Shown here piece by piece: positions 10,409 to 28,439 of a DNA stretch of 64,000 bases. Each line of letters begins with the position of its first letter. Position 1 is the stretch's first letter. The DNA is from Candidatus Krumholzibacteriota bacterium (GTDB lineage: Bacteria; Krumholzibacteriota; Krumholzibacteriia; JAJRXK01). The notes beneath the pieces are model-generated. The model was not told the origin of the DNA. It saw only the letters and a list, made by a program, of their open reading frames with translations, and did no database searches. The stretch spans positions 160,001 through 224,000 of the forward strand of contig CAVXTH010000007.1 of the NCBI GenBank assembly GCA_963764625.1. Direction: 5' to 3'. A program made the translations under genes and the position numbers.

Positions 10409-11143
10409 CTAGTGGAAGAGAGCCTTCACTTTGCCGAAGCTCGATTCCTGCGCCGAAATCGCGCCGTCCATGAAGAAGCTCACGTTGTCGTAGAAGGTTC
10501 CCGAGGCCTCGAAGTTCGTGGCCCGATTCGAGAAGCCAAACTGCAGAATCTGGCCGGCCAGGCTCGGGACGATATCGATCGACAGCGCGTAATCACCCCA
10601 AGTCGCGGGGATGGATGTCATGTCTACCGTGATGAAATTCGTCGTCGCATAGCCGTTACCGGGATCCAGGGTCTTGATGAAGGCCAGAGCCGTCGAGGCT
10701 CCCGCCAGGTCACCGTGTTTGGCCTGGAAGGTGAAGAACCATTTTCCGCCAACGTCACCCGCAGCGATCGTCTGCTCGTGAAAGACATTGGACTCGACGA
10801 TATTTCCCGCGTTGTGCGCGTCGGCATTGTTGTAGTCGCTGAACACGACCAGTTGTTGGGCTCCCTGGGCCGCGCCGCCCTCCCCGGCCGCGATCGTACA
10901 GAACGCGTAGGGGGGACCGCTGTTGGGTGCCGGAAAGGCGCCATAGCCGCCGATATACGTGACGCCGTCTGGAGCAAAGACATTGCCGTAGACCAGCCAG
11001 CCATCGGCGCCAAGAGCGCCCGTGTCCGTCTGCCCGAGGGTCTCGAAATCCTGGCCGTACCCGCTTAGCTGAGCGCTCGCCATCACCGGCATCAGGCAGA
11101 TCAGCAGGGCGGCCGCAAAGATCGCAGTAGCTCGATTGGTCAT
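10409..11143 (-). CDS. Secreted protein, paralog of 4229..5206, ending in the short SFGKVKALFH tail
   Basis: GAGAGGA RBS and signal peptide. Shares DGWLVYGNVF, GYGAFPAPN, QGAQQLVVFSDY, STALAFIKTLDP and TNFITVDMT with 4229..5206. Confidence 0.85.
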   Translation of the reverse strand: MTNRATAIFAAALLICLMPVMASAQLSGYGQDFETLGQTDTGALGADGWLVYGNVFAPDGVTYIGGYGAFPAPNSGPPYAFCTIAAGEGGAAQGAQQLVVFSDYNNADAHNAGNIVESNVFHEQTIAAGDVGGKWFFTFQAKHGDLAGASTALAFIKTLDPGNGYATTNFITVDMTSIPATWGDYALSIDIVPSLAGQILQFGFSNRATNFEASGTFYDNVSFFMDGAISAQESSFGKVKALFH

Positions 11144-11257
11144 CTCATTGTCCTCTCGTTATTGAGATCTGAAGTTCTTGCTACCGAAAAAGCACTCGGA
11201 ATCGGAGCCGTCTCGCCCAGCGGCATGCGTGGCTGATTCCAGTACGATCAGTCTATA

Positions 11258-11280
11258 CTATGTTCGGTAACCGAATCAAG
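11258..11280. promoter_or_regulatory. Operator site 2 (CTATGTTCG-N5-CGAATCAAG)
   Basis: Imperfect copy of the site 1/3 palindrome in the divergent intergenic region. On the minus strand it overlaps a TTGATT...TAGACT promoter-like pair. Confidence 0.55.
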
Positions 11281-11356
11281 TCCTAGATTGACGGCAGGGC
11301 GCAAGATAGGGCAGGGTGGGCCAGAATTCTGTTGACCCCCTTGTCGCGAGCGGATA

Positions 11357-11379
11357 CTTTGTTCGTAGTTCGAACAAAG
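11357..11379. promoter_or_regulatory. Operator site 3 (CTTTGTTCG-N5-CGAACAAAG), overlapping the putative -10 of the MFS promoter
   Basis: Perfect 9-bp inverted repeat. TTGACC (11332)-N17-TACTTT overlaps its left arm. Confidence 0.75.
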
Positions 11380-11434
11380 ATCTAGCTCTCTGGGGAAGGT
11401 CAGGGAAGCGCAAGCCCGCAAACGAGATGGCCTG

Positions 11435-12916
11435 ATGAATCCTGCCGTCCATTCCAGAACTGCGCCCGAGGATCGAGTCCGCTTCCCCCACCGGCTGGCC
11501 TACGGGGCTGGCGCCTTCGTCAATAATCTCCTGGCCGCGGCCAGTGGCGGGATGATGATCGTCCTGAACCTGGGACTCGGGATGAACCCCGGGCTGGTGG
11601 GTCTCTTGGGGGCTCTGCCCCGGCTGACCGACGCCTTCACCGATCCCCTCATGGGGTACATTTCGGACAACACCCATACGCGGTGGGGGCGCCGGCGTCC
11701 CTACATCTTCTGGGGCGCCATCGCGGCCGGGATCATCTTCGCTTTGCTGTGGCAGCTCCCCCGCGATCGAAGCCAGGCCTTCTACTTCATCTTCTTCCTC
11801 GTGGGATCGATTCTCTTCTACGGCGGGTACACGGTCTTCGCCACGCCCTGGGTCGCTCTCGGCTATGAGCTCACGCCCGACTACAACGAGCGAACTCGTC
11901 TGATGGGCACGCAGAACTTCATCGGTCAGCTCGCCTATGTGGTCTCCCCTTGGTTTCTCTGGATCATGAACTCGGGAAAATTCTTCCCGGATCAGGTTTC
12001 CGGAGCGGCCGGACTGGCCATCATCGTGGCGGTGGTGGCCATCGGATTGGGTATTCTGCCAGCGATTTTTCTGCGCGAGCGCATGCAGAGTTTGGCGGCG
12101 GAGGAGATGGAGGTCTCCAAGGCAGCCGGGAAAGGCGAGGAGCGGGCTCTCAAGCACAACCTCAGAGAGTTCTTCAAGGGATTCAAGGTCACGCTGTCGA
12201 ATGGGCCCTTCCTGAAGCTGTGTATGGCTACCTTCCTGGTGTTCAACGGCTTCATGCTCATCGCCTCGTTCCAATACTACGTGATCATCTACTACGTGTG
12301 CGGTGGCGACCAGACCGCCGGCGCCAAGTACGCCGGCTTGGCCGGCACCGTGGGCGCGGTGTGCACCTTCGCCGTGGTCGCGTTCGTCACCTGGCTCGGC
12401 ACCAGGATCGGAAAGCGCCACACCTTCTTCTTGGCCATCGGTCTCTCCATCATCGGTTACGGTCTGAAGTGGGTCTGCTACAACCCGAACGTGCCGCTGT
12501 TGGTGGTGCTTCCCGCGCCGCTAATGGCTTTCGGCTTGGGCGGTCTGTTCACTCTGGTTCCATCCATGATCGCCGACGTGGTGGACACGGACGAACTCAC
12601 GACGCACGAACGGCGTGAGGGAATGTTCGGCTCGATCTTCTGGTGGATGGTGAAACTGGGAATGGCAGCGGCACTGGCCGGCGGTGGCTATCTGCTCAAT
12701 GCCACCGGCTTCGAGGTCGACCTGGGGGGGAACCAGGCGCACCATTCCATCATTCTTCTGCGGCTGTGCGACGCGGGGATCCCCATGGTCACCTCAGCCC
12801 TGGCGATCTGGGCCGTGGCCAAGTTCCCGATTTCCGAGGCGAAAGCCCTCGAGGTGCGCCAGGAACTCGAACGCCGTAGAGGGCGGCCGGTGGCGGCCGA
12901 TGCGATGGGGAGTTGA
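11435..12916 (+). CDS. GPH-family (MelB-like) MFS sugar:cation symporter
   Basis: About 12 TM segments; RLTDAFTDPLMGYISDNTHTRWGRRRPYI, ELTPDYNERTRL, SMIADVVD...RREGMF. Confidence 0.9.
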   Translation: MNPAVHSRTAPEDRVRFPHRLAYGAGAFVNNLLAAASGGMMIVLNLGLGMNPGLVGLLGALPRLTDAFTDPLMGYISDNTHTRWGRRRPYIFWGAIAAGIIFALLWQLPRDRSQAFYFIFFLVGSILFYGGYTVFATPWVALGYELTPDYNERTRLMGTQNFIGQLAYVVSPWFLWIMNSGKFFPDQVSGAAGLAIIVAVVAIGLGILPAIFLRERMQSLAAEEMEVSKAAGKGEERALKHNLREFFKGFKVTLSNGPFLKLCMATFLVFNGFMLIASFQYYVIIYYVCGGDQTAGAKYAGLAGTVGAVCTFAVVAFVTWLGTRIGKRHTFFLAIGLSIIGYGLKWVCYNPNVPLLVVLPAPLMAFGLGGLFTLVPSMIADVVDTDELTTHERREGMFGSIFWWMVKLGMAAALAGGGYLLNATGFEVDLGGNQAHHSIILLRLCDAGIPMVTSALAIWAVAKFPISEAKALEVRQELERRRGRPVAADAMGS

Positions 12917-13929
12917 GTTCCATGCAGCTTCGCTCCGGCGTGGCTATCCTGCTCTTGGGCTCGATCTTGGCCCTCTTCGTGACCGGGATCGCGGGCTCTT
13001 TGGGCCCAGCTCACGCTGAGTCTCGCTCCCCCGGAGAGGAGATTTTCGCAGTGCGTCCCCTGCGGTTGGAAGAAAACGGCACCTGGATCGGAAACGCAAT
13101 CTGCTACAGCCCCTATCGAGACGGTCAGCGCCCGGGGGGCGCTACTCCCACCCCGGCTCAACTCCGCGAAGACTTGCGCTTGATGCTTCCGCACTGGAAA
13201 CTGCTGCGTACTTATGGAGCTTCCGGCTTTGCCGAGAACCTGCTCGAGCTGATTCGCGCCGACGATTTGGAAATGAAAGTGATGCTCGGCGTGTGGATCG
13301 CATCCGAGGATACCGCTCTGAATCGACGCGAAGTCGATGCAGCGGTACGCTTGGCAAACGCATTCCCCAATATCGTTCTCGCGGTTTGCGTCAGCAACGA
13401 GACTCAGGTCTCTTGGTCGTACAATCGGATCCCAGCCAGCGAGTTGATCGAGTATGTGCGTCGCGTGCGCGCAAGAGTTGCGGCACCGGTAACGGTGGCC
13501 GACGACCTCAAATACTGGAACAAGCCGGAGAGTCGCAAAGTTGCGGCTGAAATCGATTTCATCACCTTGCACGCGCACCCCCTGTGGAACGGAATCCTTT
13601 TGCCCGACGCCCTCTCGTGGCTGCAGGAGCAGGTGGAGGCGGTGCAGGCCATGCATCCCGAGCGGGAGATCGTGCTCGGCGAGACGGGTTGGGCTACCGC
13701 CTATTCCGACGAGGGCGAGCAGGGTGCGTTGATCAAAGGCCAGACCGGCGAGAGCGAGCAGAAACTGTTCTACCAGGCCACTCGGAGATGGGCCGAGACG
13801 AAGAAACTGCCCATATTCACCTTCGAGGCCTTCGACGAAAACTGGAAGGGCGGTACGGACCCGACCGAGGTGGAGAAGCACTGGGGTCTGTTTCGTGCCG
13901 ACCGATCGGCGAAAATGGCACTTCGTTGA
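12913..13929 (+). CDS. GH17 beta-1,3-glucanase/glucosidase with signal peptide or anchor
   Basis: AICYSPYRDGQ, LRTYG, VMLGVWI, VSNE, LGETGW, FEAFDENWK, EKHWGLF. The start may be ATG at 12922. Confidence 0.88.
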   Translation: MSSMQLRSGVAILLLGSILALFVTGIAGSLGPAHAESRSPGEEIFAVRPLRLEENGTWIGNAICYSPYRDGQRPGGATPTPAQLREDLRLMLPHWKLLRTYGASGFAENLLELIRADDLEMKVMLGVWIASEDTALNRREVDAAVRLANAFPNIVLAVCVSNETQVSWSYNRIPASELIEYVRRVRARVAAPVTVADDLKYWNKPESRKVAAEIDFITLHAHPLWNGILLPDALSWLQEQVEAVQAMHPEREIVLGETGWATAYSDEGEQGALIKGQTGESEQKLFYQATRRWAETKKLPIFTFEAFDENWKGGTDPTEVEKHWGLFRADRSAKMALR

Positions 13930-14036
13930 ACAATTCTGCTGAGCAGGATGGCAACTTCCCATTCCGAGTTCGTCGAATCGAAGCCGGGCGCATCGCTCGC
14001 GTGAGCATACGCGTGAGCGACGCGCCCCGTGTGACC

Positions 14037-14444
14037 TCAGTGCTTGGGAATCATGGGGCACTCGAAACGCTTGACCACGTCGCCGATGGAGATCTGTCCG
14101 GCATCGGCAGCGTTTTGGACTTGCTCTGCGTTGGTGAACTGGGTTGGCGAGATCGATAGCCACTCGATCGGACGGACCTCCCAACGACCCCCGTTGAACT
14201 CCATGTCACCGGGCGCGGCGTCCGCGACATTGGCCAAGTCACCGCCCAGAACATAGATGGTGTCGAATTTCCCCTGCGGGGGAAGATTCGTGGGGGTCCC
14301 GATGGTCTTGTACTGCTGGTCGTGGGCGTAGATCGTACCGGCGGGTGGACCGCCCTTGGCAAAGGCGATCGAACCCAGGGTTACGGTCATGGCCATCGCC
14401 ATGACGAGAGCCGTGAGCAGGAAAGTGCTTCTGTGCGTTTTCAT
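14037..14444 (-). CDS. Small secreted hypothetical protein
   Basis: AGAGGAG RBS, signal peptide ending AFA, typical codon usage; VADAAPGDMEFNGGRW and FECPMIP motifs. Confidence 0.75.
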   Translation of the reverse strand: MKTHRSTFLLTALVMAMAMTVTLGSIAFAKGGPPAGTIYAHDQQYKTIGTPTNLPPQGKFDTIYVLGGDLANVADAAPGDMEFNGGRWEVRPIEWLSISPTQFTNAEQVQNAADAGQISIGDVVKRFECPMIPKH

Positions 14445-14800
14445 AGACGTATCTCCTCTGAACTATTAGGAGCGCGAAACGGGACAGGGCCGCGTTCGCG
14501 CGGGGGAAGTCGCCGGTGGGATCGGTGTCTTGAGTACGCATCACTGAGAGAGCTGTGACCGAAGGGTACTGGACCTCAGATTGACCATTTTGATCGTGTG
14601 CGTACGCGAAGCTCGAACTCGAGCTATAAGGCCCTTGAACTCGCCGCCTCTCCTCGAGACACGTCGATTAGGTGGGTAAACTCACTATGGCCGGGAGATC
14701 CCAAGAACCAATTCGCGGCGACATTGTCTCAGTTCGGCTCCTCGGATATGATGATTGGGCCCTGTCCCACGATATTCCCCATACGAGGGTGGAGTAGTCA

Positions 14801-17029
14801 ATGGTCCCCAGCCATGAGCACCGCGCTATCACTTGTTTCTTCCTGTTTCTGTTCCTGATCATTGCTTCCATCGCGAATGCGGCAGACACCACTCTGCAAA
14901 ACGATGGTTTCTACGCAGGAGCGGGAGTCGGCTTCCAAGGTGGTTTCGTTACCGGCGAGATCGGCGCGTCGCGCTTCACTCCGCCCGGTTCCGTCCAGCT
15001 CAAGCAGGTACTCTTTCTGTTCGGAGGGGCCGGCGGTTCAGCGACGATCACTCTGCACATTTGGGACGATTCGGCCCTGAGACCAATCTCCGGCGTTGAA
15101 CTCTACAGCAACGACTATCTCCTCACCCCCTCGGATACCGATCTCCAACAGATCGATTTGAGCGGAGAGAGCATCTACGTCTCGGGGCCTTTTCGGGTGG
15201 GCATCCAGTTTCAGCAGGACGGGTACCCCTCCATTGCGCGCGATGACGACGGAACGATCACGTCCTCGTTGAACTACATCAACGCGAGCGGTCTGGGATG
15301 GTATCAATCGTCTCTCTTGGGATTGACCGGAGACTGGATCATCCGGGCCGTGGTTGGAACCGCACCCGCATCCTACACCGTCGGCGGTACGGTCAGCGGA
15401 TTGAACGGCATTCTAGTGTTGCAAAACAATGGGGGAGACGACCTGGTGATCAGCGGCGACGGCGCCTTCTCTTTCGCAACGCCTCTTACTGACGGCAGCA
15501 GCTACGAAGTGACCGTACTCTCCGCTCCAGCCAATCAGAACTGTGTGGTGAGCATGGGGACGGGAACCATCTCCGGGTCGAACGTGACCAACGTCTCCGT
15601 GAGCTGCAGCGATAAGCCGACGACAGTGCAGGTATTGCAACACGATAGCTTCATCCCCGGTCAGAACGCGGGTTTTCAGGCCGGATTTGTGGCCAACGAG
15701 ATCGCTGCGGTTCGTTTCACTCCGCCTGGTCTAGTTCATCTCGAAGCGGTACGATTTCTCTTTGGAGGAGCGTCAGGACTCACCTCGATTCGTTTGCACG
15801 TATGGGATGACGCCGCGGAAACGGATGATCCCGGCACCGAACTCTTGGCTCAGGATTACCTCATCGATGCTTCGGACGTCGCGCTCCAGGAGATCGATCT
15901 CGGTTCGCAGGGCCTCCAGCTCACGGGACCGTTCCGGGTGGGGGTCGAGCTTCTCGCGGCGGGTCTGCCATCGGTGGCGAGGGACGATGACGGCAACATC
16001 GACAGCGCGGTCAATTTCATTCTGGGCCAAAGCATCGGCTGGGTGAAGTCGAGTACGGTGGGTCTCACCGGCGACTGGATCTTGCGGGCGATTGTGAGTC
16101 TCGCTTCATCGTTCCCGGAACCCATCATCTTGGCAGTGGATGACATCGGCAACGATCAAGGGGGACAAGTACGTCTGAGCTTTCAGAGCTCGAGCCAGGA
16201 TGCTCTGGGAGCCACGCAGCCGGTGCTGAGCTATGAGGCCTATCGCCGCATCGACTCGCTGCCCTTCGGAGCCATCGCTGGGGTCTCCGCCAAAAAGCTA
16301 GCGGGCTGGGAATACGTGGGTGCGGTTCCGGCGCACGGTGAAACCGAGTACAACATGATCGTGCCCACCCTGGCCGATTCCACCATCAGCCAGGGAATGC
16401 ACTGGTCGGTGTTCTTCGTTCGGGCCGCGACCGCCTCGCCAACGATTTTCTACGATGCGGCGCCCGATTCCGGCTGGTCGCTGGACAACCTGGCACCGAG
16501 CGCGCCCAACAATCTCGTGTTGAACGCGGCGCAGCTCGATTGGACTCCCGCGGCCGAATCGGATTTCGACTACTACAGGGTGTACGGTTCCTCGACCGGA
16601 GCCCTCGACGGGTCAGAGATGCTACTGGGCGCCACGAGCGCGAACTCGTATTCCGTTTCAGGCAGCCCCCAGCCGTATTATCTGGTGACCGTTGTCGATT
16701 TCGCGGGGAACGAAGGCGAGGCTTCCGCGGTGCAGAATACCGCCACCGGGGTCGAGAACGTGCCCCCCCGCGATTTGTGGGTGCGCGTGAGTCCCAACCC
16801 CTTCAACCCGGCCACCTCGATTCGCTTCTACTTGCCCGAAGCGGCGCCGGTCAGTCTGCGGGTCTATGACCAGAGGGGGCGGCTGGTGGACACGCTCTTG
16901 CGGTCACAACCGTTTCCGCAAGGGGAACACCTCGTGCCCTATCGAAGCGAACTGCCGAGCGGAGTCTATTTGCTGAAGCTGATCAGTGCGAATCAAAGCC
17001 AGACGGCTAAGATCAGTCTGGTGCGTTGA
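14801..17029 (+). CDS. Secreted modular protein: duplicated ~160-aa domain, Ig-like domain, FN3-like domain, PNPFNP C-terminal domain
   Basis: Signal peptide; two copies of LQxD...GFQxGFV..EI...RFTPPG...ARDDDG...GLTGDWIxRAxV; YTVGGTVSGL..LVLQNNGGDDL Ig repeat; DIGNDQGGQVRL; DNLAPSAP; PNPFNP...KISLVR. Confidence 0.85.
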   Translation: MVPSHEHRAITCFFLFLFLIIASIANAADTTLQNDGFYAGAGVGFQGGFVTGEIGASRFTPPGSVQLKQVLFLFGGAGGSATITLHIWDDSALRPISGVELYSNDYLLTPSDTDLQQIDLSGESIYVSGPFRVGIQFQQDGYPSIARDDDGTITSSLNYINASGLGWYQSSLLGLTGDWIIRAVVGTAPASYTVGGTVSGLNGILVLQNNGGDDLVISGDGAFSFATPLTDGSSYEVTVLSAPANQNCVVSMGTGTISGSNVTNVSVSCSDKPTTVQVLQHDSFIPGQNAGFQAGFVANEIAAVRFTPPGLVHLEAVRFLFGGASGLTSIRLHVWDDAAETDDPGTELLAQDYLIDASDVALQEIDLGSQGLQLTGPFRVGVELLAAGLPSVARDDDGNIDSAVNFILGQSIGWVKSSTVGLTGDWILRAIVSLASSFPEPIILAVDDIGNDQGGQVRLSFQSSSQDALGATQPVLSYEAYRRIDSLPFGAIAGVSAKKLAGWEYVGAVPAHGETEYNMIVPTLADSTISQGMHWSVFFVRAATASPTIFYDAAPDSGWSLDNLAPSAPNNLVLNAAQLDWTPAAESDFDYYRVYGSSTGALDGSEMLLGATSANSYSVSGSPQPYYLVTVVDFAGNEGEASAVQNTATGVENVPPRDLWVRVSPNPFNPATSIRFYLPEAAPVSLRVYDQRGRLVDTLLRSQPFPQGEHLVPYRSELPSGVYLLKLISANQSQTAKISLVR

Positions 17030-17074
17030 GCTCGGGGAATGTGGTGTTTGCTCTCCTGAAGAGCGGGACCTCTC

Positions 17075-18631: not shown

Positions 18632-18634
18632 CGA

Positions 18635-18677
18635 GTTATTCCTTTCATAACAGATGGTTCGTTATTCTTTCCATAAC
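18635..18677. promoter_or_regulatory. Tandem palindromes GTTAT-N7-ATAAC (candidate NorR enhancer sites)
   Basis: GTTATTCCTTTCATAAC (18635-18651) and GTTATTCTTTCCATAAC (18661-18677). Confidence 0.6.
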
Positions 18678-18715
18678 ATACTTTCTAAGTCCTTGTCATC
18701 AAAGAAGTTTTTTGG

Positions 18716-18732
18716 CTGGCATCGAAGCTGCA
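18716..18732 (+). promoter_or_regulatory. sigma54 -24/-12 promoter for ric
   Basis: CTGGCATCGAAGCTGCA, with exact GG-N10-GC spacing, ~30 nt upstream of ric. Confidence 0.8.
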
Positions 18733-18760
18733 ATCTCGCTTCCACAAGGAGGAGATTATC

Positions 18761-19423: not shown

Positions 19424-19437
19424 CAGGAGGTTTCGCA

Positions 19438-19986: not shown

Positions 19987-20457
19987 TTACCTGTTCTCGA
20001 AATACCTCCGCAACATCATCAACTGTCCAAAGTGATACGAGTTGTGTTTGATCAAGAGGATCCCTTCGCGCAGGAGCGTCTGTCCACTCCCATGCGTGAA
20101 GGGCTTCTCGAGATCGTTCGACGGGTCCGCGAGCAAACTCACCATATTCTCCAAATCCCTTTGGAAGGCCTCGATGCTCTGCGACCAAGCAGCTTCATTC
20201 TTGGGCGCTGTATCCTTGGGCCAGTAGCCCTCCGGCCAGGGAGGGGATTTGTGCTCGGGGTCGGTCGAGAACTTCAGGATGTCCTCCTGCGCCAGACGTA
20301 GATGCTCGAGCAAGTGCCATGCGGAATGGGAGAAGCCATCAGGTACGCTTCCGCGGTGTTCTTGCGGAAAATCCTCGAGGATCTCCTTCAACATGGGGTG
20401 GGCGTTGGAGGCCTTGAGCATCGTGGTGAGTTGTTCGCGGACCGCGTCGTTCGCCAT
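19987..20457 (-). CDS. DinB-family protein
   Basis: HSAWHLLEHLRLAQEDIL, WPEGYWP, HNSYHFGQL. Confidence 0.85.
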   Translation of the reverse strand: MANDAVREQLTTMLKASNAHPMLKEILEDFPQEHRGSVPDGFSHSAWHLLEHLRLAQEDILKFSTDPEHKSPPWPEGYWPKDTAPKNEAAWSQSIEAFQRDLENMVSLLADPSNDLEKPFTHGSGQTLLREGILLIKHNSYHFGQLMMLRRYFENR

Positions 20458-20473
20458 GGGGACTCCTCGGATC

Positions 20474-20953
20474 CTAGAATTGACCCTTCAGCATGCCCCA
20501 ACTGCTACGGGGCACCGCAACCGCGCCGGCATCCATACCATCACAGTCCTGGTCGATTCCGTCGCCAGGGATGTCGAGCGCGGCAGGGTTGATCGTAAAA
20601 TCAGAGTCGTCGCAATCACCCCCACCGAAGATCGTACCGAACTCGTTGCAGCTAAAGTCTGCGCTCAAAACCGTGCTGGAGTCAGAGCCCCAGCCATCCG
20701 CGTCTAGATCTTCGTAGCAGAGTTCGAACCCATCGCAGTCTTCGTCGATTCCGTCGCTGAGGAATTTCAACCGCTCCTGGATATAATGGAGTTAGTTGTC
20801 ATCGCAGTCATCGCCGCCGCAGGCAACCGAGATGTGACCGTCACCATCAAGATCCTCCGGACACTGGGCCCGCGCGGTGACGTTTCCGACAAGCAGACTG
20901 GATGCAAGGATGAGAGAAAACAGGTAAGAGACATGACTTAGCCTTGTTCTCAT
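20474..20953 (-). CDS. Small secreted Asp/Cys-rich protein with MopE-like putative metal-binding repeats (frame broken near 20765-20795) and a SWGMLKGQF tail
   Basis: Signal peptide; DLDGDG...DCDD...PGAVEIP.DGIDEDCDG repeated twice; the two ORF-track pieces join if small indels are corrected. Confidence 0.7.
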
Positions 20954-21254
20954 AGAGAGACCTCGTGAATTGCGGGGGAATGAGGAACTCCAACAGCGCG
21001 GTAGGGGAGCCAGGCGCACAAGTAATAGGCGCTCGCCTGGGACCGAGCGTCGGGGCCGAACGGAGTATACACCGAATGGCGGTTCCGTGAGAGAACTTTC
21101 GAAAGGCTCCTCTAATTCTCATCTCCCACCTCAGTGGATGTCGCTCCACTGAAGGTTCAGAGTAAACGGATCGCCACTGGCGTGGTTGCGATGAGCGAAG
21201 CGAGTCAAGCACAAGCATGCTTGGCACAACTGTACTCGCTTTCCTCTTATTCCA

Positions 21255-22208
21255 ATGGTGGTCAGATCAATAAAGCGCACTCATTCATCGGTATTTCCTG
21301 GTTTCACCCTCGCGTTTTTGTCATCGCTGGTGCTCTTCCTCGCTTGCTCCGCGCGTTGCGCAGTCGCGGATACCATCCAAGTCGCAAAGGATGGGTCGGG
21401 TGATTACTCGACTCTGCAAGAGGCGGTTGCGGCCTCCAGCGAGGGTGATCGCATCGAAGTAGGTCCGGGCACCTACAGCGAGGCCGGAGTGGAGGAAGCA
21501 GGGGTTCAGGTGACCCACAGTCTGGAGATCGTCGCGACATCGGGTCCCGAAGTTACGATCATCGACGGCGAGACCGTTCGACGTGGCTTTCTCTTTAGGG
21601 GCATACAGACGAGCCTCGTGCAGGGCTTCACTTTCCTCAACTGCTACCACAATGACATCGGCTCGGGGATTACGGTCACCGAAGGCGCGCACCTCGAGGT
21701 CGAAGGCTGTTCCTTCGAGCAAAATATGGCGGGTTATCAAGGAGGTGCGGTTCACGTACGTCAATCTGGATCGAGTTTACAGATCCGAGACTCCCAGTTC
21801 ACCGAGAATACATCCTACATAGGAGGAGCAGGTACCTCCATCCAAGGGGGGAGCCTCTCCTTTGAAAACTGCCTGTTCGAAAAGAACGTGGGCACCGAGA
21901 TCTACGGTACGCTGGCAACGAATGCGGCGTACCTTGGTGTCACGGGGTGCACCTTCATCGAAAACAGCGGGCCGAGTGGTACCTGCGTCAACTACTATGA
22001 GGCGGATGGCAAGGTCTTGGGGAACACCTTCTACAGGAATTCGGTCGGGATCGCGAGTGTGAGAGTCGATGCTCCGACCAAGAGAATCCTCGTGGCTAGA
22101 AATATCTTCTACGGTGAACAGCAAGGTTACGGCTTGGTGGAATACGGTGGGGTGGACGAGAGCTGCAATCTCTACTACCAGAACGCGAAGGGCAGCAATC
22201 TGAGCTGA
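21255..22208 (+). CDS. Secreted right-handed parallel beta-helix (pectin-lyase-like) protein; probably the 5' part of one gene with 22211..23473
   Basis: Signal peptide; TIQVAKDGSGDYSTLQEAV...IEVGPGTYSE; repeated CxFxxN..GG turns. Confidence 0.8.
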   Translation: MVVRSIKRTHSSVFPGFTLAFLSSLVLFLACSARCAVADTIQVAKDGSGDYSTLQEAVAASSEGDRIEVGPGTYSEAGVEEAGVQVTHSLEIVATSGPEVTIIDGETVRRGFLFRGIQTSLVQGFTFLNCYHNDIGSGITVTEGAHLEVEGCSFEQNMAGYQGGAVHVRQSGSSLQIRDSQFTENTSYIGGAGTSIQGGSLSFENCLFEKNVGTEIYGTLATNAAYLGVTGCTFIENSGPSGTCVNYYEADGKVLGNTFYRNSVGIASVRVDAPTKRILVARNIFYGEQQGYGLVEYGGVDESCNLYYQNAKGSNLS

Positions 22209-22210
22209 TC

Positions 22211-23473
22211 ATGTCGGCAGATAGTGCGGGAGGTACTTTTGGAGAAGAAGTCGCGACCACGGTGAGCCTGCGTTTGGCGGATGCAGATGCACCCGTCGTG
22301 TCTTCGATTGGAGGCCTGGACTTCGTTCTGCTGTGGAACCCCATCGTCGCTACCTTCGTCAGAGTTGAACCCACCGAGGAGACGGCAAACTGGCAGATTG
22401 CCAACGATGCCACTCACGCCCCGTATGGGGAACTTCACGTCTCCATGGCTGGTCTCGATGGTTTCGACGTGGGTCCGGAGAAAGTGAATGCCTTGCGGAT
22501 AGTCTTCGAGTTCAACTCGGACGGAGGTTATACCTCGCTGGACCTGACTCAGACGAAGGTTTTTACGACTGAACCAGCTCCCGTTTCTCATGGTACCGAA
22601 GCAGGTACGCTCACGGAAGGTTGTGAGAAGGGTGACGTCTATCCCGACGGCAGCATCGACTCGGCGGACGCCATCCTGGCATTGAAGATTGCGATTGGAC
22701 TGGTCCAGGCCACTCCAGCGCAACTCTGTGCCGCCGACATGAACGATGACGGAAAGGTCGATGTCGGCGATGCCGTGCTGATACTCCGTACGGCCGTTGG
22801 TTCGCTCAAAACGGACTTGGCAAAGTCGAGCACACTTGCGAGCAGTGTCGAATTGAACCCGAGTTCGGAGGGGGCGACGCTGAATCTCTCAGGAATTGCC
22901 GGCTTCGATGCCGAGTTGATCTACGCTCCAACCAAGATCCACTTTGTGGCCGGTAGCTCTCAAAGTGGGCTCGTGATCGTCAATGATGAGCAGGAAGGGC
23001 TGATTCAGGTGGCCTACGCTGCAAGCTCCGAGAATGACGCTGCCGTCAATCTGCACTTCGAGTCCTTGAATGGGGGAGGGTTGCTCACCCTTCAGCAGGT
23101 GTGGGGTTGCGATCTCGGAGGACAAAGCGTGGGTCTGAGCAACGACGAGCAGAGCGTGTTCGTTTCGTTGACCGCAACCTCGACGCCAAGTAGCTCTCGA
23201 AAAGCGGAGCTGCTGGGCATCTATCCCAATCCCTTCAACCCGCAGACGGTAATCAAATTCCGTCTCGATGCGCATGAATCAGATCTGAGGATCTATGATA
23301 CGGCGGGTCATCGGGTGAAGAGCTTTGATCTATCGCATCTCGGGTCCGGTGAGCATAGCATTCGTTGGTTCGGAAGGGATGAGGCGGGGCGTACGGTTGC
23401 GAGTGGCGTGTACTACGTCAGACTGCAGACTTCTCATGGGGCAGAAGTGCTCAGGGCCGTGCTCCTGAAGTAG
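22211..23473 (+). CDS. Cohesin-like + dockerin + cohesin-like + FlgD/T9SS-type C-terminal domain
   Basis: Dockerin duplicate GDVYPDGSIDSADAILAL / ADMNDDGKVDVGDAVLILR; cohesin-like IGGLDFVLLWNP and IAGFDAELIYAP; PNPFNP domain; no signal peptide of its own. Confidence 0.75.
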   Translation: MSADSAGGTFGEEVATTVSLRLADADAPVVSSIGGLDFVLLWNPIVATFVRVEPTEETANWQIANDATHAPYGELHVSMAGLDGFDVGPEKVNALRIVFEFNSDGGYTSLDLTQTKVFTTEPAPVSHGTEAGTLTEGCEKGDVYPDGSIDSADAILALKIAIGLVQATPAQLCAADMNDDGKVDVGDAVLILRTAVGSLKTDLAKSSTLASSVELNPSSEGATLNLSGIAGFDAELIYAPTKIHFVAGSSQSGLVIVNDEQEGLIQVAYAASSENDAAVNLHFESLNGGGLLTLQQVWGCDLGGQSVGLSNDEQSVFVSLTATSTPSSSRKAELLGIYPNPFNPQTVIKFRLDAHESDLRIYDTAGHRVKSFDLSHLGSGEHSIRWFGRDEAGRTVASGVYYVRLQTSHGAEVLRAVLLK

Positions 23474-23491
23474 GCGAGAGGCTCATTCGAA

Positions 23492-23513
23492 GGGGCTCCC
23501 CCGGGGGAGCCCC
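23492..23513. terminator. Hairpin between convergent genes
   Basis: GGGGCTCCC-CCGG-GGGAGCCCC. Confidence 0.6.
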
Positions 23514-23518
23514 ATTCC

Positions 23519-26308
23519 TCAGCGATATCCGAAGAGCACCGAGTAGAGAATGAGCCCGATGAGGATCGTCCCCAGGGTGAGCGCGGTGAACCCGAGGATC
23601 TTCACCGCCAGCATACGTCGGCGTGAAATGCTGGTGGTTTCCACGTAGCGCTTCAGTCCACCAAGATCCTTCAAATCCGCCACCGCACGAGGACGATCCT
23701 TCTTGTACTCCTCGTAGGGCACGACGCCAGTGAAGATCACGGTATCCATGGGGAACGCCTCGGGCCTCAGATGAGTATTGAAGAAGTGGATGGTGAAAAT
23801 GAAACCAACCGCGAGCAACGCCTCGTCGCTGTGGATGATGGTGGCGACGTTGATGAGCCAGCCGGGGAGGAACTTCGTGAAGAGCTCGGGTAGCCAAAGC
23901 ATCAGCCCCGAGAGACCGATGACTGCGATTCCCCAGAACACCGCCAGATAGTCGAACTTCTCCCAGTAGGTCCAACGTCCGTACTCCGGTCGCGGACCCT
24001 TGCCCCAGAACCACTTCACCGAGGCGATGAACTCGTGGAAGTCCCGGCGATTGAACATGAGCGAGTTGGGCCCGAAGATCAGATCCTTGAGCGAGACCTT
24101 GCGCTTTCTCTTGAAGAGCGCGAGGGAGGCAAGGTGGAAGGCGAAGTATCCGAAGGTGATCACCGCAGCTGTGCGGTGGATCAGACCTGCATTACGCACT
24201 CCACCGAGCATCGCGGAGAGTCTGACTGCCCAGGGCATGCCCGAGAACTTCAACATCATCCCCGTGAGCGCGAGGGTCAGGAAGCTGATGATGACGAAGA
24301 TGTGCGTATACTGCTGGGGCTTCGTGAAGCGGCGTACGTAGTGACGGGTACGTCCTTCTTCCACCGCCTTGCGTCTGCGCTCTCGCATGCTCTTGAACGA
24401 GCGTGGGAGCCACATCAAAGTGTGAATGCCGAAGAACGAGAACACGCCCACCAGAAGGAGCGTCATTGACCAGTAGGTGTAATACAACACCGGATACCGC
24501 ACCGGATCGTGGTGTGTGGCATGGGTGAGGTAACCGGTGAACCGCCGATTCGCATCCGCGTGACACTTCCGGCAGGTGGTCACGATGTTTCGGAAGGCGA
24601 CCGAGGATGCCGGATCGTTGACGCTCAGAATGAGATGCGCGCCATGGCAATCAGAACACTTCGCGGACTTCAAGAAGCCCAACTGATAGGCCTTTCCGTG
24701 CATCGTCTTCAGATAGGTCTTGGCCAGCTCCTCGTGACACGAGCCGCACTGCTGGGTCACTTGCCGCATGAACTCGTCCTGTTGGGTCGATTCGATGCGG
24801 TGCGAAGTGTGGCAACGCGCGCAGGTGGGGACCTTCTTTTCATCTTTGGGGTCGGAAGAGTAGTGAATGCTCTTGATGAACTCTTTGTAGATCCCCCGGT
24901 GACAGTTTGCGCATGTCGCAGGCAGGTTTCGCGGATAAACCTTGGAGCGATTGTCCGAGGCGGGGAGAATCAAGTGGCTGCCGTGGCAATCGATGCAGAT
25001 GGCGCTGGGAAGAAGGCCCTTTTCCGTCAACGCGCGCCCGTGGACGCTCTTGGAGTAGTCGTTGAACGCGGATTTTTCCGTGAGATCAGCGGCGGTATTG
25101 GCAGCTCCTCCTTTGGTGTGACACTTGCCGCATAGTGCCGGCACGTTCGAGCGGAAAGTCAGCGATCGTTCGTCGTTGTGGCGATACGCGTTGTGGGTTC
25201 CATGACAATCGGTACAGTAGGGAGCTTCTTTCACTCCGGAAGCCCAGTCCTTGCCGTGACCGCTCTCGAAATACTCCTCGGAGATCTTCGAGTGGCAGGC
25301 CGAACAGTCCACTCTACCCGACGGCTCGCAGGGCCGGTGCAGGCGCGGATCGATATCAGAATGGCACTTCACGCAGGGAATCGTGGTGTGGGCGGAATCC
25401 TGCAGCACCTTGGAATCAACGTACATCGAGAGCGTGTCGCCGCTGGCGGAGACCGAGTGCAATGTGTGGTCAGCGTGACAACGTAGGCACTCCCGATCGG
25501 AGACCGTCATCGCAACGGTTTCCTTGCGGGTCAGGTGCGGTCGGTGACAGTCCGTGCACGACGGAATCGCGCCGGGCTTCTGTTCCCAGAGCTCACCCCG
25601 AATGACCTTGGCATGCACCTTTTCGATCTGTGCATGACACTTCATACAGGTCTTGGCTATGTTGCGTGGCGAGATGGTCGCGTTCGGATCGGTATGCGGG
25701 AGAATCCGGTGGCTACCGTGGCAGTCGTTGCAGGTCGCGGTGACGATGAGCCCCTTTTTGAACAGCCCTTCACCGTGGATGCTCTGACTGTAGTTCTCGA
25801 GAATGTTGGTTTGACCGATCTTGTAGGTGCTCGCGACGGGCGCACCCTCTTTGTGGCAACGGCCGCATGTGAGGGGGATGTTGGTTTTGTAGACCTTCGA
25901 CTTTGGGTCTCTGGGGGAACGAATGTCGTGAATCCCGTGACAGTCGGGGCAGTCGGGCGCATAGGGCAGGCCGCCGCTCAGGGCCTGACCATGGATACTC
26001 GAATCGAAGTCGAGCTGCTCGTCGTCGTGGCAGTTGCCGCAGCGGACCTTGGCCAGCCGTTCGGGGTGGTCCTCGCTGGCGTCCTCATGACAGTCGGTGC
26101 ACGAGAGATCAGCGTGAACCGACGCGGCGAACGCTTTGGCGTTCACGTAGAGCGAGAAGGTGGTGCCCTGCCGTTCCGTGGAGAAATCGGGGTCGTCATG
26201 GCACATCAGGCAGGTCTCGTTGTCGGTCTGGGCCCGCACGGAACCCGTCACCAACAGCCCTCCCACCAGCATCAGCCAGAAGAGCACTCGCTTTGATCCT
26301 CGATCCAT
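23519..26308 (-). CDS. Multiheme (19 CXXCH) cytochrome c fused to a cytochrome b membrane domain (CbcL-like quinol:cytochrome c oxidoreductase)
   Basis: Signal peptide, 19 CXXCH motifs counted, then a TM domain with [42 protein letters not shown]. Confidence 0.9.
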
Positions 26309-26559
26309 GCCGCCACTCCGCTGGAACCCGGGAACTCCCGAACGAAAGCTCGATAACCAGGTCGAACAATTGTGATTTTGGGGGCCCTGTCAAGGTGAAG
26401 TGGAGTTCCCGTGCGATGGGACCATCCTGCGATTTCCCCCGATTCCGGGCCGAATCGGGCCATTTGCGAAATTCCCATGGACAGACGCGCGAGGGTGGAG
26501 AGAGGCTCATGGGGCCAGAGTGAATCCAGAGACTTCCTCGGACCAGGGAGGGCAAGTCG

Positions 26560-27084
26560 GTGCGCACGGTTCGATTTCTCCTAGTCTTGTCCAGTAGCAT
26601 CTTGCTCGTGGCGGTGGGATGCTCGCAGAGAACCCAGCCGTCCGAGGAGTTGGCGCACTACGCGCTGGACGACATGGATGGGGTGATCACTCAGACCGGC
26701 GTCGAGCTCGACAAGGCGGTGTCGAGCGATGCGGGCGGTTCCCTGCATCTGACGACGACCGATTCGACCACGGTGAGCCTTTTCGAGACGGGTGACCTGA
26801 AGGTGGAGGGCGCTAGGCTCATCTACTCGGCGAAGATCCGCACCCAGGACCTGGAGGGAAAGGCCTACCTGGAAATGTGGTGCCACTTCCCGGGAAAGGG
26901 CGAGTACTTCTCCCGTGGGCTCACCGATCCTCTGACCGGGAGCCAGGACTGGAGCTCCCAGGAGACCTCCTTCTTCCTGAAGAAGGGTCAGGATCCGGAC
27001 CAGGTGAAGCTCAACCTCGTGGTCACCGGGCCCGGTGAGGTGTGGATCGATGATCTACGGCTGGTGAAGGCTCCGCTTCCGTAG
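26560..27084 (+). CDS. Lipoprotein with CBM/galactose-binding-like fold (hypothetical)
   Basis: GGGAGG RBS, lipobox VAVGC, ends GPGEVWIDDLRL. Confidence 0.75.
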   Translation: MRTVRFLLVLSSSILLVAVGCSQRTQPSEELAHYALDDMDGVITQTGVELDKAVSSDAGGSLHLTTTDSTTVSLFETGDLKVEGARLIYSAKIRTQDLEGKAYLEMWCHFPGKGEYFSRGLTDPLTGSQDWSSQETSFFLKKGQDPDQVKLNLVVTGPGEVWIDDLRLVKAPLP

Positions 27085-27134
27085 GCGGACCTTGGCGGGG
27101 TCGGTCGAGCGAAACGGGAGCGCGGGCTCGCGAC

Positions 27135-27602
27135 TCAGTTCTTTAGCATCCCTTCTGGCATTTCAACGCACACGATTTCTCCCGTGGCGCAAACGACGCC
27201 CTCGGCGGAGAGTTCGGCGTCGATGACGACCTTTCGACCCTTGATTTCCTTGATCTTGCCGCGAATGACCAACTCCGGTCCCATGGGCGTCGGCTTCAGG
27301 TAGTTCACGTGGAGGGCGGCGGTCACGAAGCGGGGAATCCTCTCGCCCTCCGTCCCGCCCCGATGGCGGTGCATCGCGGCGGCGGCAGAGCCGGTGCCGT
27401 GGCAGTCGATGAGGGAAGCGATGAGCCCGCCGTACACGTACCCCACGATGGCGGTGTGATAGGGCTTGGGCTGGAAGGTGCAGACTGTTTCGTCGCCATC
27501 CCAGTAACTCTTGATCTGGTGACCATGCTCGTTCAGGGCACCGCAGCCGTAGCAGTGCTGGACATCCTCCGGGTAGAGGTCCTGGAATGCGACTCGCTCC
27601 AT
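27135..27602 (-). CDS. PaaI/hotdog-fold thioesterase
   Basis: CYGCG, VYGGLIASLIDCH, VTAALHVNYLKPTP. Confidence 0.85.
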   Translation of the reverse strand: MERVAFQDLYPEDVQHCYGCGALNEHGHQIKSYWDGDETVCTFQPKPYHTAIVGYVYGGLIASLIDCHGTGSAAAAMHRHRGGTEGERIPRFVTAALHVNYLKPTPMGPELVIRGKIKEIKGRKVVIDAELSAEGVVCATGEIVCVEMPEGMLKN

Positions 27603-27620
27603 ATCCGTGATTCCCTTCTG

Positions 27621-27657
27621 AGAAAAGAGAAAGCCCCCACCAAAGGAGGGGGCTTTC
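27621..27657 (-). terminator. Rho-independent terminator
   Basis: GAAAGCCCCC...GGGGGCTTTC stem, followed by TCTTTTCT on the minus strand. Confidence 0.75.
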
Positions 27658-27683
27658 CATTGTATCTCCCAGGCTCAACTAAG

Positions 27684-28439
27684 TCACTTGCCGTAACTCG
27701 ACTTGATCTTGCTGAAGGAGACCGCTTGTGCATCCACTGGAGACATCGCGCTGATCTCGACCACGAAATCCTGGTAGTCGTTGTCAGTACAATGGTCGCA
27801 GTAGCTCGAAGTGATGTCGCCACTGTAGTCCAGGTCTTCCCAGGCCAGAACGAAGGTGGGAACGCCGCCACGGAGATCCGTGATGTCATACACGAGACAC
27901 TGCACGTCGCCATCTGTCGGCGCGTGCACTCCGCCGCCCCCGGACACGCCGAGGTCGTTGTAGAAGCGATTGACGAAGAAAAGCTCCGGTTCGGGTGCGT
28001 TGATGGAGTCCAGCGGACCATTGGGGTTGAGATAGAAGCTAAACGTCGTCACGCCGGAGGGGAATACGATCGATGCCGTCGCTCCGACCCCCGACGGGCC
28101 ATCAAAGATCACACCGTCGTCCACTCCATCGATGACGGGTTGACTCAAGGTCTCCTTGTACCAGCCGAAGGTGTTTTGGGGACTGTAGCCCGCGACCTCG
28201 CGAACGATGATGCCGTAGATTCCAAGGTCTTCCCAATACACGGGGTCGGGGTCGCCGGAGTTTGCGCCGATGTAGTCGTTCTGGGCGTCGATGACGCCAA
28301 CACCGTACTCAGCATCGAGTACGCTCTGAAGGGAGATACCATCCCACGACGTGCCGAAGGTGACAGGGAAGGCGTGGGCTGAGGAAGCAAGAAGCAGGGC
28401 CAGCAGCGCGCAGCCCATTCCGCGAACAAGGTTGTGCAT
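27684..28439 (-). CDS. Secreted DUF4114-like protein with a short SFSKIKSSYGK tail
   Basis: GGAGG RBS before ATG 28439; signal peptide ending AHA; LAWEDL...DNDYQDFVVEI. Confidence 0.8.
   Translation of the reverse strand: MHNLVRGMGCALLALLLASSAHAFPVTFGTSWDGISLQSVLDAEYGVGVIDAQNDYIGANSGDPDPVYWEDLGIYGIIVREVAGYSPQNTFGWYKETLSQPVIDGVDDGVIFDGPSGVGATASIVFPSGVTTFSFYLNPNGPLDSINAPEPELFFVNRFYNDLGVSGGGGVHAPTDGDVQCLVYDITDLRGGVPTFVLAWEDLDYSGDITSSYCDHCTDNDYQDFVVEISAMSPVDAQAVSFSKIKSSYGK

Follow-up and report, generated by a model that had tools for sequence, protein, structure and literature searches.

A portable C-terminal tag of about 15 residues on exported proteins of Krumholzibacteriota that alternates with FlgD-Ig-like T9SS-type domains

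Three proteins encoded on the minus strand of the DNA analysed here (a stretch of 64,000 nucleotides from a Krumholzibacteriota genome, below called the window) end in copies of one portable C-terminal tag of about 15 residues, which probably serves as an address label for the cell envelope of a kind not described before. The tails had been noticed in an initial annotation of the window, and all three are present there with their stop codons: ...AISAQESSFGKVKALFH at 10409-10462 (gene A), ...AVAVPRSSWGMLKGQF at 20474-20524 (gene B) and ...PVDAQAVSFSKIKSSYGK* at 27684-27740 (gene C). They align without gaps across the core, and the tail consensus is V-P-[AT]-x3-[ST]-[WF]-G-x-[LVIM]-K-[AS]-x-[FY]; after the W-G there are only six conserved positions, the invariant Lys among them, and then 0-5 (once 9) more residues. 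The motif extends beyond the pattern first proposed: V-P-[AT] is conserved seven residues upstream, and F, L, I, M and V are tolerated at the Trp position.

The frequency of the motif at C-termini and elsewhere was compared in a crude gene set of the genome that holds the window (G000; 3130 genes, 1,086,558 residues), where the C-terminal 12-residue zone makes up 4.6% of positions. The strict motif, S[WF][GS]x[VLIM]Kxx[FYW], has 26 matches inside this zone and none internally, a concentration far beyond chance; looser patterns give six to eight internal matches in this genome, none of them ahead of a CTD, and these look like chance matches. A tail profile search of G000 found 44 members, mostly small proteins (median 245 aa), that fall into 38 BLAST core clusters of unrelated families and include carbohydrate-binding, adhesin-like and peptidase proteins. 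By a crude heuristic, 37 of the 44 have a signal-peptide-like N-terminus, as do 505 of 1504 background proteins. The idea of a portable, strictly C-terminal tag carried by Sec-exported proteins whose cores are unrelated is supported. The tail lies behind a folded core on a flexible linker. As first described, it has no transmembrane segment (no hydrophobic stretch is present) and, at about 15 residues, falls far below the size of a T9SS CTD. Searches of the whole proteins gave no Pfam or NCBIfam match in the tail, nor did 10 C-termini of 35 residues searched in isolation with an E-value limit of 10; we found neither a Pfam or NCBIfam model nor a paper that describes the tail.

Gene A (P0003, 244 aa; 10409..11143, minus strand) consists of a Sec signal peptide, a CBM-like beta-sandwich core without a Pfam or NCBIfam match, a linker of about 10 residues and the tail, and its AlphaFold2 model (mean pLDDT 90.9, tail about 67-69) has a predicted fold that matches CBM16/22/61. 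A plus-strand paralogue of 325 aa at 4229..5206 carries an FlgD-Ig-like T9SS-type CTD (PF13860, E 5e-11), and the two proteins are 61% identical over residues 1-228, after which one continues into the tail and the other into the FlgD CTD. In the gene A family as a whole (P0003 plus 119 listed homologues, n=120), 101 members end in the tail, 17 in an FlgD CTD and 2 in a third short tail, ...PVPVELMSFSIE, and the family tree requires at least three changes. Two copies of the family lie 5-7 kb apart in six of the eight genomes that have it (G000, G002, G003, G005, G014 and G019), one copy aligned to the query's end and the other in a longer frame. The paralogue pair of the window appears to be common to five relatives, the CTD on the longer copy having been read in G000 only. 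Gene A sits in a GH17/MFS locus that also holds a convergent plus-strand gene for a 539-aa protein with an FlgD-Ig-like CTD (8731..10350; PF13860, E 2e-8). An MFS sugar transporter gene (11435-12916, PF13347) and a GH17-like gene (12913-13929, PF00332) lie upstream of a plus-strand gene for a 742-aa protein with a T9SS type-A CTD (14801..17029, PF18962).

Gene C (27684..28439, minus strand; 251 aa from MHNLVRG...) encodes a Sec-type signal peptide, a DUF4114-like core (a weak DUF4114 match) and the tail. Among the 120 best database matches listed for it, the window's own protein included, 116 end in the tail, with K at the conserved Lys position in 115 and R in one. Gene B (20474..20962, minus strand) combines a signal peptide, MopE (PF11617) Cys-rich repeats and the tail. 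The initial annotation gave Sec signal peptides to all three proteins, which is correct for genes A and C. The ORF that encodes the signal peptide of gene B lies upstream in the same reading frame and is separated from the rest of the gene by an in-frame TAA (20792-20794). The TAA is inside a 34-base out-of-frame patch (about 20763-20796), and contigs of three public runs (X1, X2 and X4; 95-99% alike) depart from the window sequence precisely at this patch (-1 at 20763, +CC after 20785 and -1 at 20796). The break in gene B is therefore either strain-specific or an assembly indel error.

The proposal that the tail and the FlgD/T9SS-like domain act side by side is supported by homologous core families that bear one or the other and swap them at the same junction. 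Outside the gene A family, a C25 peptidase of 443 aa has the tail in G000, while homologues of 514 and 536 aa in two other genomes have the CTD, and a PUL protein family includes CTD forms (2/120) and a TM-type anchor (1/120). G000 contains 89 FlgD_ig matches, and its tail genes lie near CTD genes in 12 of 44 cases, where 5.2 are expected (a count of 12 is attained in 7 of 2000 random sets), and near each other in 14, where 3.6 are expected (1 of 2000 random sets). One operon that ends in a tail gene also contains a LacI regulator, a TonB-dependent receptor, a PorV/PorQ barrel and a CTD-bearing glucoamylase. Predicted tail-protein cores include CBM-like and lectin/PL7-like folds, and such cargo should need a location outside the cell.

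Genomes from several uncultured bacterial phyla encode dozens of exported proteins with this tail apiece. A tail DNA pattern was matched in all 121 phylum genomes sampled, mostly far above the control count, and four low-count genomes examined by protein profile have variant tails; the tail also occurs in MAGs labelled Eisenbacteria, Latescibacterota, Fibrobacteraceae and Gemmatimonadota. SprA scored over its cut-off in 41/41 relatives and in each of the three tail-rich genomes tested from other phyla (G041-G043), and G000 encodes SprA, PorU, PorV and about 8 PorV/PorQ-family paralogues. Among the genomes tested, the tail is found only where T9SS genes occur. The converse does not hold: a Kapaibacterium-labelled genome with SprA over cut-off and 36 FlgD_ig matches gave a single tail-profile match, and a Zixibacteria-labelled genome gave none despite SprA over cut-off and 26 FlgD_ig matches. 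Thus, a T9SS is not sufficient for the tail.

The conserved Lys position of the tail is K in 43/43 anchored G000 tails and in 104/104 in the PUL family. In the anchored G000 tails this residue lies 3-8 residues (once 12) from the C-terminus, and the aromatic three positions past it is the end of the protein in 14/43 and is followed by further residues in 29/43; a basic residue at the tail end is frequent in relatives and not required in G000. AlphaFold2 predicts for two tail proteins a linker and then a short terminal helix (pLDDT about 51-69). The initial annotation saw an amphipathic helix in the hydrophobic positions, which fall at 0, +3 and +7; with the low confidence of this short helix and a hydrophobic moment of the tail core that is no higher for a helix (0.91) than for a strand (1.2), that description is not established.

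Several known signals resemble the tail in part. The T9SS type-A CTD (TIGR04183/PF18962, here FlgD-Ig-like PF13860) is likewise C-terminal on Sec-exported proteins, follows a flexible linker at the same junction on similar cargo, and has the setting found here for tail proteins, T9SS core genes together with a Sec signal peptide; its secretion depends on the T9SS, and it is cleaved by PorU. However, the type-A CTD is a folded beta-sandwich of about 70-100 residues (at least 40 in the short form), whereas the tail has about 15 residues, no beta-sandwich, no B or D (GxY) motif and no family HMM match. Aligning 41 tails with 70 CTDs of the same genome by hhalign gave a score of 4.8 over 2 columns, and the 30 residues ahead of the PNPF motif in the 70 CTDs contain no W-G-K pattern. 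Tripartite signals (LPXTG/sortase, PEP-CTERM/exosortase, GlyGly-CTERM/rhombosortase and MYXO-CTERM) comprise a motif, a transmembrane helix and a basic cluster; like the tail they are short, portable, strictly C-terminal, present on many unrelated exported proteins per genome and replaced by other anchors in homologues, but the tail lacks the hydrophobic transmembrane helix that would place it among them. The beta-signal of outer-membrane beta-barrels is the last barrel strand, with alternating hydrophobics and a terminal aromatic, and the tail, with its soluble beta-sandwich cores, its hydrophobic spacing and its mostly non-terminal aromatic, is not of this kind. Braun's lipoprotein (Lpp), whose last-residue Lys is linked to peptidoglycan by L,D-transpeptidases, is likewise an envelope protein with a conserved Lys near its C-terminus, accompanied by an aromatic and often by a basic residue; the tail Lys is internal and never the last residue, which sets the tail apart from an Lpp-type C-terminus.

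According to PMC10994853, the type-A CTD has a single near-invariant and functionally important residue for which the fold does not account, a Lys that lies just before the C-terminus. The tail Lys recalls this residue and motif E of the type-A CTD, a conserved basic residue close to the end, as a resemblance, not an alignment. According to PMC11969387, T9SS signals can shrink to 40-55 residues in the short CTDs of Prevotella intermedia, and in work cited there 22 residues of Hbp35 sufficed. Type-B CTDs offer a parallel in that they form a second C-terminal signal class with its own anchoring outer-membrane carrier, the cognate PorP/SprF barrels, and according to PMC12618676 other CTD types rely on shuttle barrels of their own; type-B CTDs are, unlike the tail, folded domains with five motifs. 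In G000, several PorV/PorQ-family paralogues are present and two are in operons with tail genes, yet such adjacency is not above chance (2/8 within five genes of a tail gene, about 1 expected).

We give a probability of about 0.45 to the reading that the tail is an envelope sorting or anchoring signal working with the T9SS, as an alternative to the 80-100-residue FlgD-Ig-like type-A CTD. Tail proteins would cross the inner membrane via Sec. At the outer membrane the tail with its invariant Lys would then be recognised, and the most plausible reader is one of the several PorV/PorQ-family carrier barrels. Their destination would differ from that of the CTD-bearing paralogues; for example, a tail protein might be retained on its barrel where the paralogue would be cleaved by PorU and linked to glycolipid. 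We infer the reading by T9SS components, the identity of the reader and any cleavage of the tail. This T9SS-linked reading is supported by the presence of SprA in every tail-rich genome tested, and it is weakened because a T9SS is not sufficient for the tail, because PorV/PorQ paralogues lie near tail genes no more often than by chance, because the tail has no sequence similarity to any part of a CTD, because 15 residues cannot form the beta-sandwich that binds PorV/SprA or the three-stranded sheet of a short CTD, and because side-by-side tail and CTD paralogues fit two fates, one of them maybe T9SS-independent. The missing similarity to the CTD also suits a label of a separate, non-T9SS pathway that keeps company with the T9SS through shared commonness in the Fibrobacterota-Chlorobiota-Bacteroidota, which we regard as unlikely but a serious contender. 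It agrees with the T9SS-positive genomes that lack the tail, with the paralogues apparently kept together in six sampled genomes, as expected if destinations differ, and with the homologues that end in a third short tail or a TM-type anchor, a "choice of anchor" pattern familiar from other sorting systems. The genome encodes three CHAT-TPR (caspase-fold) proteins, and each is found within five genes of a tail gene, a weak lead, since about 14% of genes are near a tail gene, many families were examined and only 3 genes are involved. A dedicated machinery of the kind that the initial annotation proposed, separate from the T9SS, is not established, with T9SS genes in all tail-rich genomes tested; the analysis turned up no reader protein and no sortase-like partner, and the genes around the 44 tail genes pointed to no candidate machinery. 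In the boldest reading, which is doubtful rather than improbable, Krumholzibacteriota, Eisenbacteria, Latescibacterota and allies would have their own outer-envelope sorting pathway, with a reader or enzyme that acts on the Lys, for example by transpeptidase-like attachment to a surface polymer or carrier protein, and cells would choose between two destinations by swapping the 15-residue tail for the T9SS domain.

Less probable again is a retention device in the periplasm or at the inner face of the outer membrane, in which Trp, Lys, Tyr and Phe could anchor in the leaflet or the Lys could be linked to, for instance, peptidoglycan by an L,D-transpeptidase as in Lpp. A Lys that is almost never Arg is better explained by chemistry at the epsilon-amine than by charge alone, residues typical of membrane interfaces include Trp/Phe and Tyr/Phe, and the predicted short helix on a floppy linker is consistent with such a device; but a membrane anchor of eight residues would be very short, the helical moment is not raised, the Lys is not terminal as in Lpp, carbohydrate-binding and lyase-like cargo of glycan-utilisation loci should work outside the cell, and orthologues that carry a secretion domain instead would put the same protein in a different compartment. 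It is very improbable that the tail marks proteins for degradation or maturation through recognition by a PDZ-type protease of the periplasm or by a C-terminal processing peptidase. The genome does encode DegP/HtrA-type PDZ proteases (e.g. L022:8410-10089), and the C-terminal position and an aromatic near the end are of the right kind, but the 0-9 variable residues past the aromatic fit free-carboxylate recognition poorly, the exchange with a secretion domain is left unexplained, and we know of no degradation tag on 44 proteins per genome, across phyla, within one exported class.

The tail is present on about 1.4% of the G000 crude gene set (44/3130) and is invisible to annotation pipelines, and tens of tail genes per genome occur throughout candidate phyla that are common inhabitants of sediments, soils and salt marshes. 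Many of the proteins bind or cut polysaccharides and are encoded in glycan-utilisation loci; the destination of the tag is key to understanding how these bacteria feed. If read by the T9SS, the tail would be by far its smallest signal and would bear on the role of the conserved C-terminal Lys in T9SS signals; if read by something else, it would mark a sorting pathway of diderm bacteria that has not been described. An export or display tag of only 15 residues would in addition be a useful tool. Elsewhere in the window, a plus-strand ORF of 420 aa (22211..23473) encodes a dockerin and an FlgD-Ig-like CTD, and a beta-helix ORF (21255-22208) lies directly ahead of it in a different frame.

The three C-terminal tails reported in the initial annotation are present exactly where it placed them, all on the minus strand of the window: gene A (10409-11143, 244 aa) ends in ...AISAQESSFGKVKALFH, gene B (tail end at 20474) in ...AVAVPRSSWGMLKGQF and gene C (27684-28439, 251 aa from MHNLVRG...) in ...PVDAQAVSFSKIKSSYGK. 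Their cores are indeed unrelated, since protein A has no family match and a CBM-like beta-sandwich fold, gene B encodes MopE Cys-rich repeats and gene C has a DUF4114-like core. Sec signal peptides had been ascribed to all three; they are plain in A and C, whereas that of B (MRTRLSHVSYLFSLILASSLLVGNVTARAQ) sits upstream, in the same frame as the tail-bearing part and separated from it by a TAA codon at 20792-20794. This stop is in frame within a 34-base out-of-frame patch (20763-20796, minus strand), and a proper MopE repeat can be read around it in another frame. Because contigs from three public sequencing runs (95-99% alike) differ from gene B at this patch (one base fewer at 20763, an additional CC after 20785 and one base fewer at 20796), the break probably reflects either an indel error of the assembly or a lesion specific to this strain, and gene B is probably intact in nature.

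The C-terminal position and exported cargo claimed for the tail in these three proteins extend to the whole 3.57 Mb, nine-contig genome that includes the window, for which crude gene calling (longest start, GC3 filter and greedy overlap removal) gave 3130 genes; both these gene calls and the signal-peptide calls below are heuristic. All 26 matches to S[WF][GS]x[VLIM]Kxx[FYW] in 1,086,558 residues lie no more than 12 residues from a C-terminus, a zone that accounts for 4.6% of positions. Looser patterns give 27-39 C-terminal and 5-8 internal matches; the latter lie in unrelated cytoplasmic or membrane proteins, and internal use of the motif ahead of CTDs (the FlgD-Ig-like C-terminal domains of type IX secretion, T9SS) was therefore rejected. 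A search with a profile built from the tails found 44 members, in 38 BLAST clusters, whose match ends no more than nine residues from the C-terminus. In the 43 tails that could be anchored on the Trp position (position 0: W31, F8), the preferred residues are V31 and I5 at -7, P20 at -6, A22 and T8 at -5, S31 and T7 at -1, G39 and S4 at +1, L23, V10, M5 and I4 at +3, K43 at +4, A29 and S11 at +5, and F24 and Y18 at +7, after which 0-5 residues follow (once 9). A lenient heuristic gave 37 of the 44 tail proteins an N-terminus resembling a signal peptide, and the other seven are for the most part fragments; among background proteins of 150-450 aa the figure was 505 of 1504. Tail proteins are short (median 245 aa vs 607 aa for proteins with FlgD-type CTDs), with LTD, fn3, cohesin-like, Temptin_C/dihaem and Peptidase_C25 among their families. 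In whole proteins the tail is not reached by any Pfam-A or NCBIfam (release 20) model, and ten isolated 35-residue C-termini searched against the same collections at E up to 10 likewise gave no model on the tail. A full-text literature search did not find the WGxIK-type motif in a relevant sense. The tail is a real, widespread and unannotated C-terminal tag.

The suggestion that the tag runs in parallel with the FlgD/T9SS-like domain is borne out by homologues, since the same core families end in either the tail or a CTD. Among the family A homologues listed (protein A itself, P0003, and 119 others), the tail is the ending of 101, a FlgD-Ig-like domain (QNYPNPFNP...RSMxLLK) that of 17 and another short tail (...PVPVELMSFSIE; ...NQPVPVELMSFSIE / ...MSLSVE) that of two (P0040 and P0062). 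The third ending of P0040 and P0062 sits at the same junction as the SWG tail and the FlgD-type domain. Tail and CTD forms of the family diverge exactly past the last core strand (alignment A1), and a quick tree requires at least three changes of ending, compared with a mean of 18 when endings are shuffled; judged from these sequences, tail/CTD swaps in family A are rare but repeated. The window itself holds both forms, as a paralogue of gene A (4229-5206, plus strand, 325 aa) shares 61% identity with A across residues 1-228 before continuing into PF13860. Two copies 5-7 kb apart are also found in five related genomes (G002, G003, G005, G014 and G019), one matching in full to the query end and one in a longer frame whose alignment to protein A stops at residue 228-235. 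Such pairs occur in six of the eight family-bearing genomes, the present one included, among 25 searched, and the other two (G010 and G015) have the longer form alone. The longer copy was read as CTD-bearing at its C-terminus in the present genome only; if those elsewhere carry a CTD in the same way, both forms have been kept together across two families of the class, which would argue against redundancy of the two endings.

Exchange of endings is seen in other families as well. A 443-aa C25 peptidase with a PorU-like catalytic region (locus L003:883-2211; contig C7:35883-37214) ends in a variant tail, ...TSLGGLKARFRRR, and its homologues of 514 aa in G043 and 536 aa in G041 have FlgD-type CTDs at their ends. 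The idea that small tail-bearing C25 peptidases form a tail-specific sortase family was not supported, as homologues in other tail-rich genomes have CTDs or are much larger. Two proteins of 435-440 aa share the same tail variant, S-[FLI]-G-x-LKA-x-F (C5:391437-392759 and L006:8583-9887, the latter without a family match). The 120 homologues of a further tail protein (L017:1816-2730, hereafter the PUL protein) divide into 104 with strict tails, eight with variants (...K-x-x-H-R, once ...KADQ), two with T9SS CTDs (P0327 and P0355), one with a TM-type anchor (P0324) and five with longer or other endings. The anchor of P0324, ...PGVSTWGVVILALLLLGAGTTWVVRRQAGVA, starts with S-T-W-G at the tail's place, and it may be an artefact of a frameshift or else hint at kinship between the short tail and tripartite signals. 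In family C the tail is present in 116 of the 120 best matches listed. That the tail is a remnant or homologue of the CTD was rejected, as W-G-K is missing from the 30-residue stretch that precedes PNPF in 70 CTDs and hhalign scores tail against CTD at 4.8.

AlphaFold2 models built with family alignments are confident for the cores of protein A (mean pLDDT 90.9, pTM 0.82) and of the PUL protein (90.0 and 0.82), the latter predicted to be a lectin/PL7-like jelly-roll. In both models an unstructured linker of about ten residues leads to a short C-terminal helix (residues 236-241 of A and 262-270 of the PUL protein) that is not packed on the core and has a pLDDT of about 67-69 and 51-61, respectively. 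The amphipathic helix proposed earlier is not supported by the hydrophobic moment, which for the eight-residue tail core comes to 0.91 as a helix vs 1.2 as a strand, and the helix in the models is of low confidence and cannot be relied on.

Those homologues of protein A that have a named source belong to Candidatus Krumholzibacteria/-ota and Eiseniibacteriota. The DNA pattern W-G-x-h-K-x-x-[YF], which detects Trp-type tails only, gives 2 to 105 matches per genome in 121 sampled genomes of the phylum, all of one class and, as kin, not independent, and its reversed control gives 0-6. Low counts proved not to mean absence of the tail: G024, with three pattern matches vs two for the control, has 16 protein profile matches (E up to 1), and G100, G101, G069 and G106 have 13-21 at E up to 0.1, beside 50 in the tail-rich G104. 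The tails of these five low-count genomes are non-Trp variants, and no tail-free relative was found among the low-count genomes of the phylum checked with the protein profile. A scan of a species collection for [ST]-W-G-x-[IVM]-K-x-[LF]-[YF]-R-stop, which is biased to AAG Lys codons, returned at least 130 stretches; the 80 listed carry the depositors' own labels Eisenbacteria (18), Latescibacterota/-ia (6), Krumholzibacteriia (3), Fibrobacteraceae (8), Fibrobacter sp. (1), Gemmatimonadota (2), Zixiibacteriota (1), Kapaibacterium (1) and Alphaproteobacteria (1), the remainder being plain "bacterium". The upstream V/P/A/T-E context is also visible in 37 translated stretches. In five genomes from other phyla, pattern and control counts with profile matches (E up to 0.1) were 48/0 and 38 for a Fibrobacter sp. 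MAG (G041), 72/1 and 47 for a Fibrobacteraceae MAG (G042), 68/1 and 42 for a Gemmatimonadota MAG (G043), 1/2 and 1 for a Kapaibacterium (G044) and 5/2 and 0 for a Zixibacteria genome (G045).

The present genome has a T9SS set of SprA (split into two frames), PorU (split), PorV and a PorW/SprE-like TPR protein, together with about eight barrels of the PorV/PorQ family and 89 FlgD_ig matches. SprA passes the cut-off in all 41 relatives tested and in each of the five genomes from other phyla, of which the three tail-rich ones have 91, 145 and at least 150 FlgD_ig matches (E up to 1e-5) and the two tail-free ones 36 and 26. Among the genomes examined, tails occur only alongside T9SS, and T9SS also occurs without tails. 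A relation between SprA divergence and tail number was rejected, since the summed scores are similar and G013 combines 48 pattern matches with SprA at E 4e-122. The literature searched did not mention Krumholzibacteriota, or Eisenbacteria/Latescibacteria, together with type IX secretion.

Of the 44 tail genes, 12 have a CTD gene no more than three genes away (5.2 expected, with 12 reached by 7 of 2000 random gene sets), and 14 have another tail gene that close (3.6 expected; 1 of 2000); the random sampling covered all genes and was not restricted to exported ones. The PorV/PorQ paralogues were considered as tail-gene neighbours and set aside, two of eight being about chance. The PUL-protein gene closes an operon that holds a LacI regulator, a CTD protein, a TonB-dependent receptor, a 1101-aa protein, a PorV/PorQ barrel and a CTD-bearing glucoamylase, and gene A adjoins an MFS sugar transporter and a GH17-like gene; products of such glycan loci would be expected to act outside the outer membrane. 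The window region 4229-17029 as a whole is a locus of glycan-utilisation type, with a CBM-like CTD protein, a 1166-aa protein without family match, a 539-aa CTD protein, the tail paralogue, the MFS sugar transporter, the GH17-like gene and a 742-aa CTD protein.

Its position, its cargo, its exchange with the CTD and its co-occurrence with T9SS suggest that the tail is a C-terminal sorting or anchoring signal of the outer envelope. The most likely reading, at a probability of roughly 45%, is an alternative sorting or anchoring signal linked to T9SS. The tail would then be read at the translocon or by a carrier of the PorV/PorQ family, and would give its protein another fate than the PorU-cleaved CTD does. 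Such a link is plausible because T9SS signals can be short and CTD classes can have carriers of their own: passages of PMC11969387 describe Prevotella intermedia signals that can be shrunk from seven strands to three (40-55 residues) and cite work in which 22 residues of Hbp35 were sufficient, and parts of PMC12618676 describe other CTD classes with their own carrier barrels. For type-A CTDs, PMC10994853 names a Lys near the C-terminus as the one almost invariant residue of functional importance that the fold does not account for. The lysine of the tail is K in 43 of 43 tails in the present genome, 115 of 116 in family C and 104 of 104 in the PUL family, and the homologue listing of family A has one Arg at its place among 101 tails. 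Against a T9SS link, the tail has no sequence similarity to the CTDs of this genome (hhalign), with 15 residues it is too small for the known binding site, G044 and G045 have T9SS without tails, and no candidate reader emerged from the tail-gene neighbourhoods of this genome.

A separate pathway with its own machinery is the main rival, and we regard it as rather unlikely. The paralogues kept side by side, the additional short tail and the TM-type variant are consistent with a "choice of anchor" pattern, and a weak lead comes from the TPR-CHAT (caspase-fold) proteins, all three of which are encoded within five genes of a tail gene (C1:43320-46145, C7:237668-240379 and, outside the window, C7:41399-44530), a number too small to count. 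A retention device, whether an interfacial anchor or a covalent tether through the lysine, appears improbable. That the tail is a protease tag we consider very improbable. Two of the three TPR-CHAT genes adjoin ECF sigma-factor genes and small FlgD-CTD proteins.

Besides gene B, frame breaks affect PorU (L019:213-1931 and 2717-4438), SprA (L020:2986-4476 and 4373-10012), a GH92 gene in three ORFs (L009:1345-3585) and a pair of adjacent window ORFs in different frames (21255-22208 and 22211-23473), which suggests that the nine-contig assembly has frequent indel errors. With genes split across frames in this way, some tail ORFs are fragments, and short ORFs or those lacking a signal peptide need care. 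The window also encodes, at 23519-26308 on the minus strand, a 929-aa protein with many c-type haem motifs (cytochrome c7/c3, paired CXXCH) and a cytochrome b561-type membrane domain.
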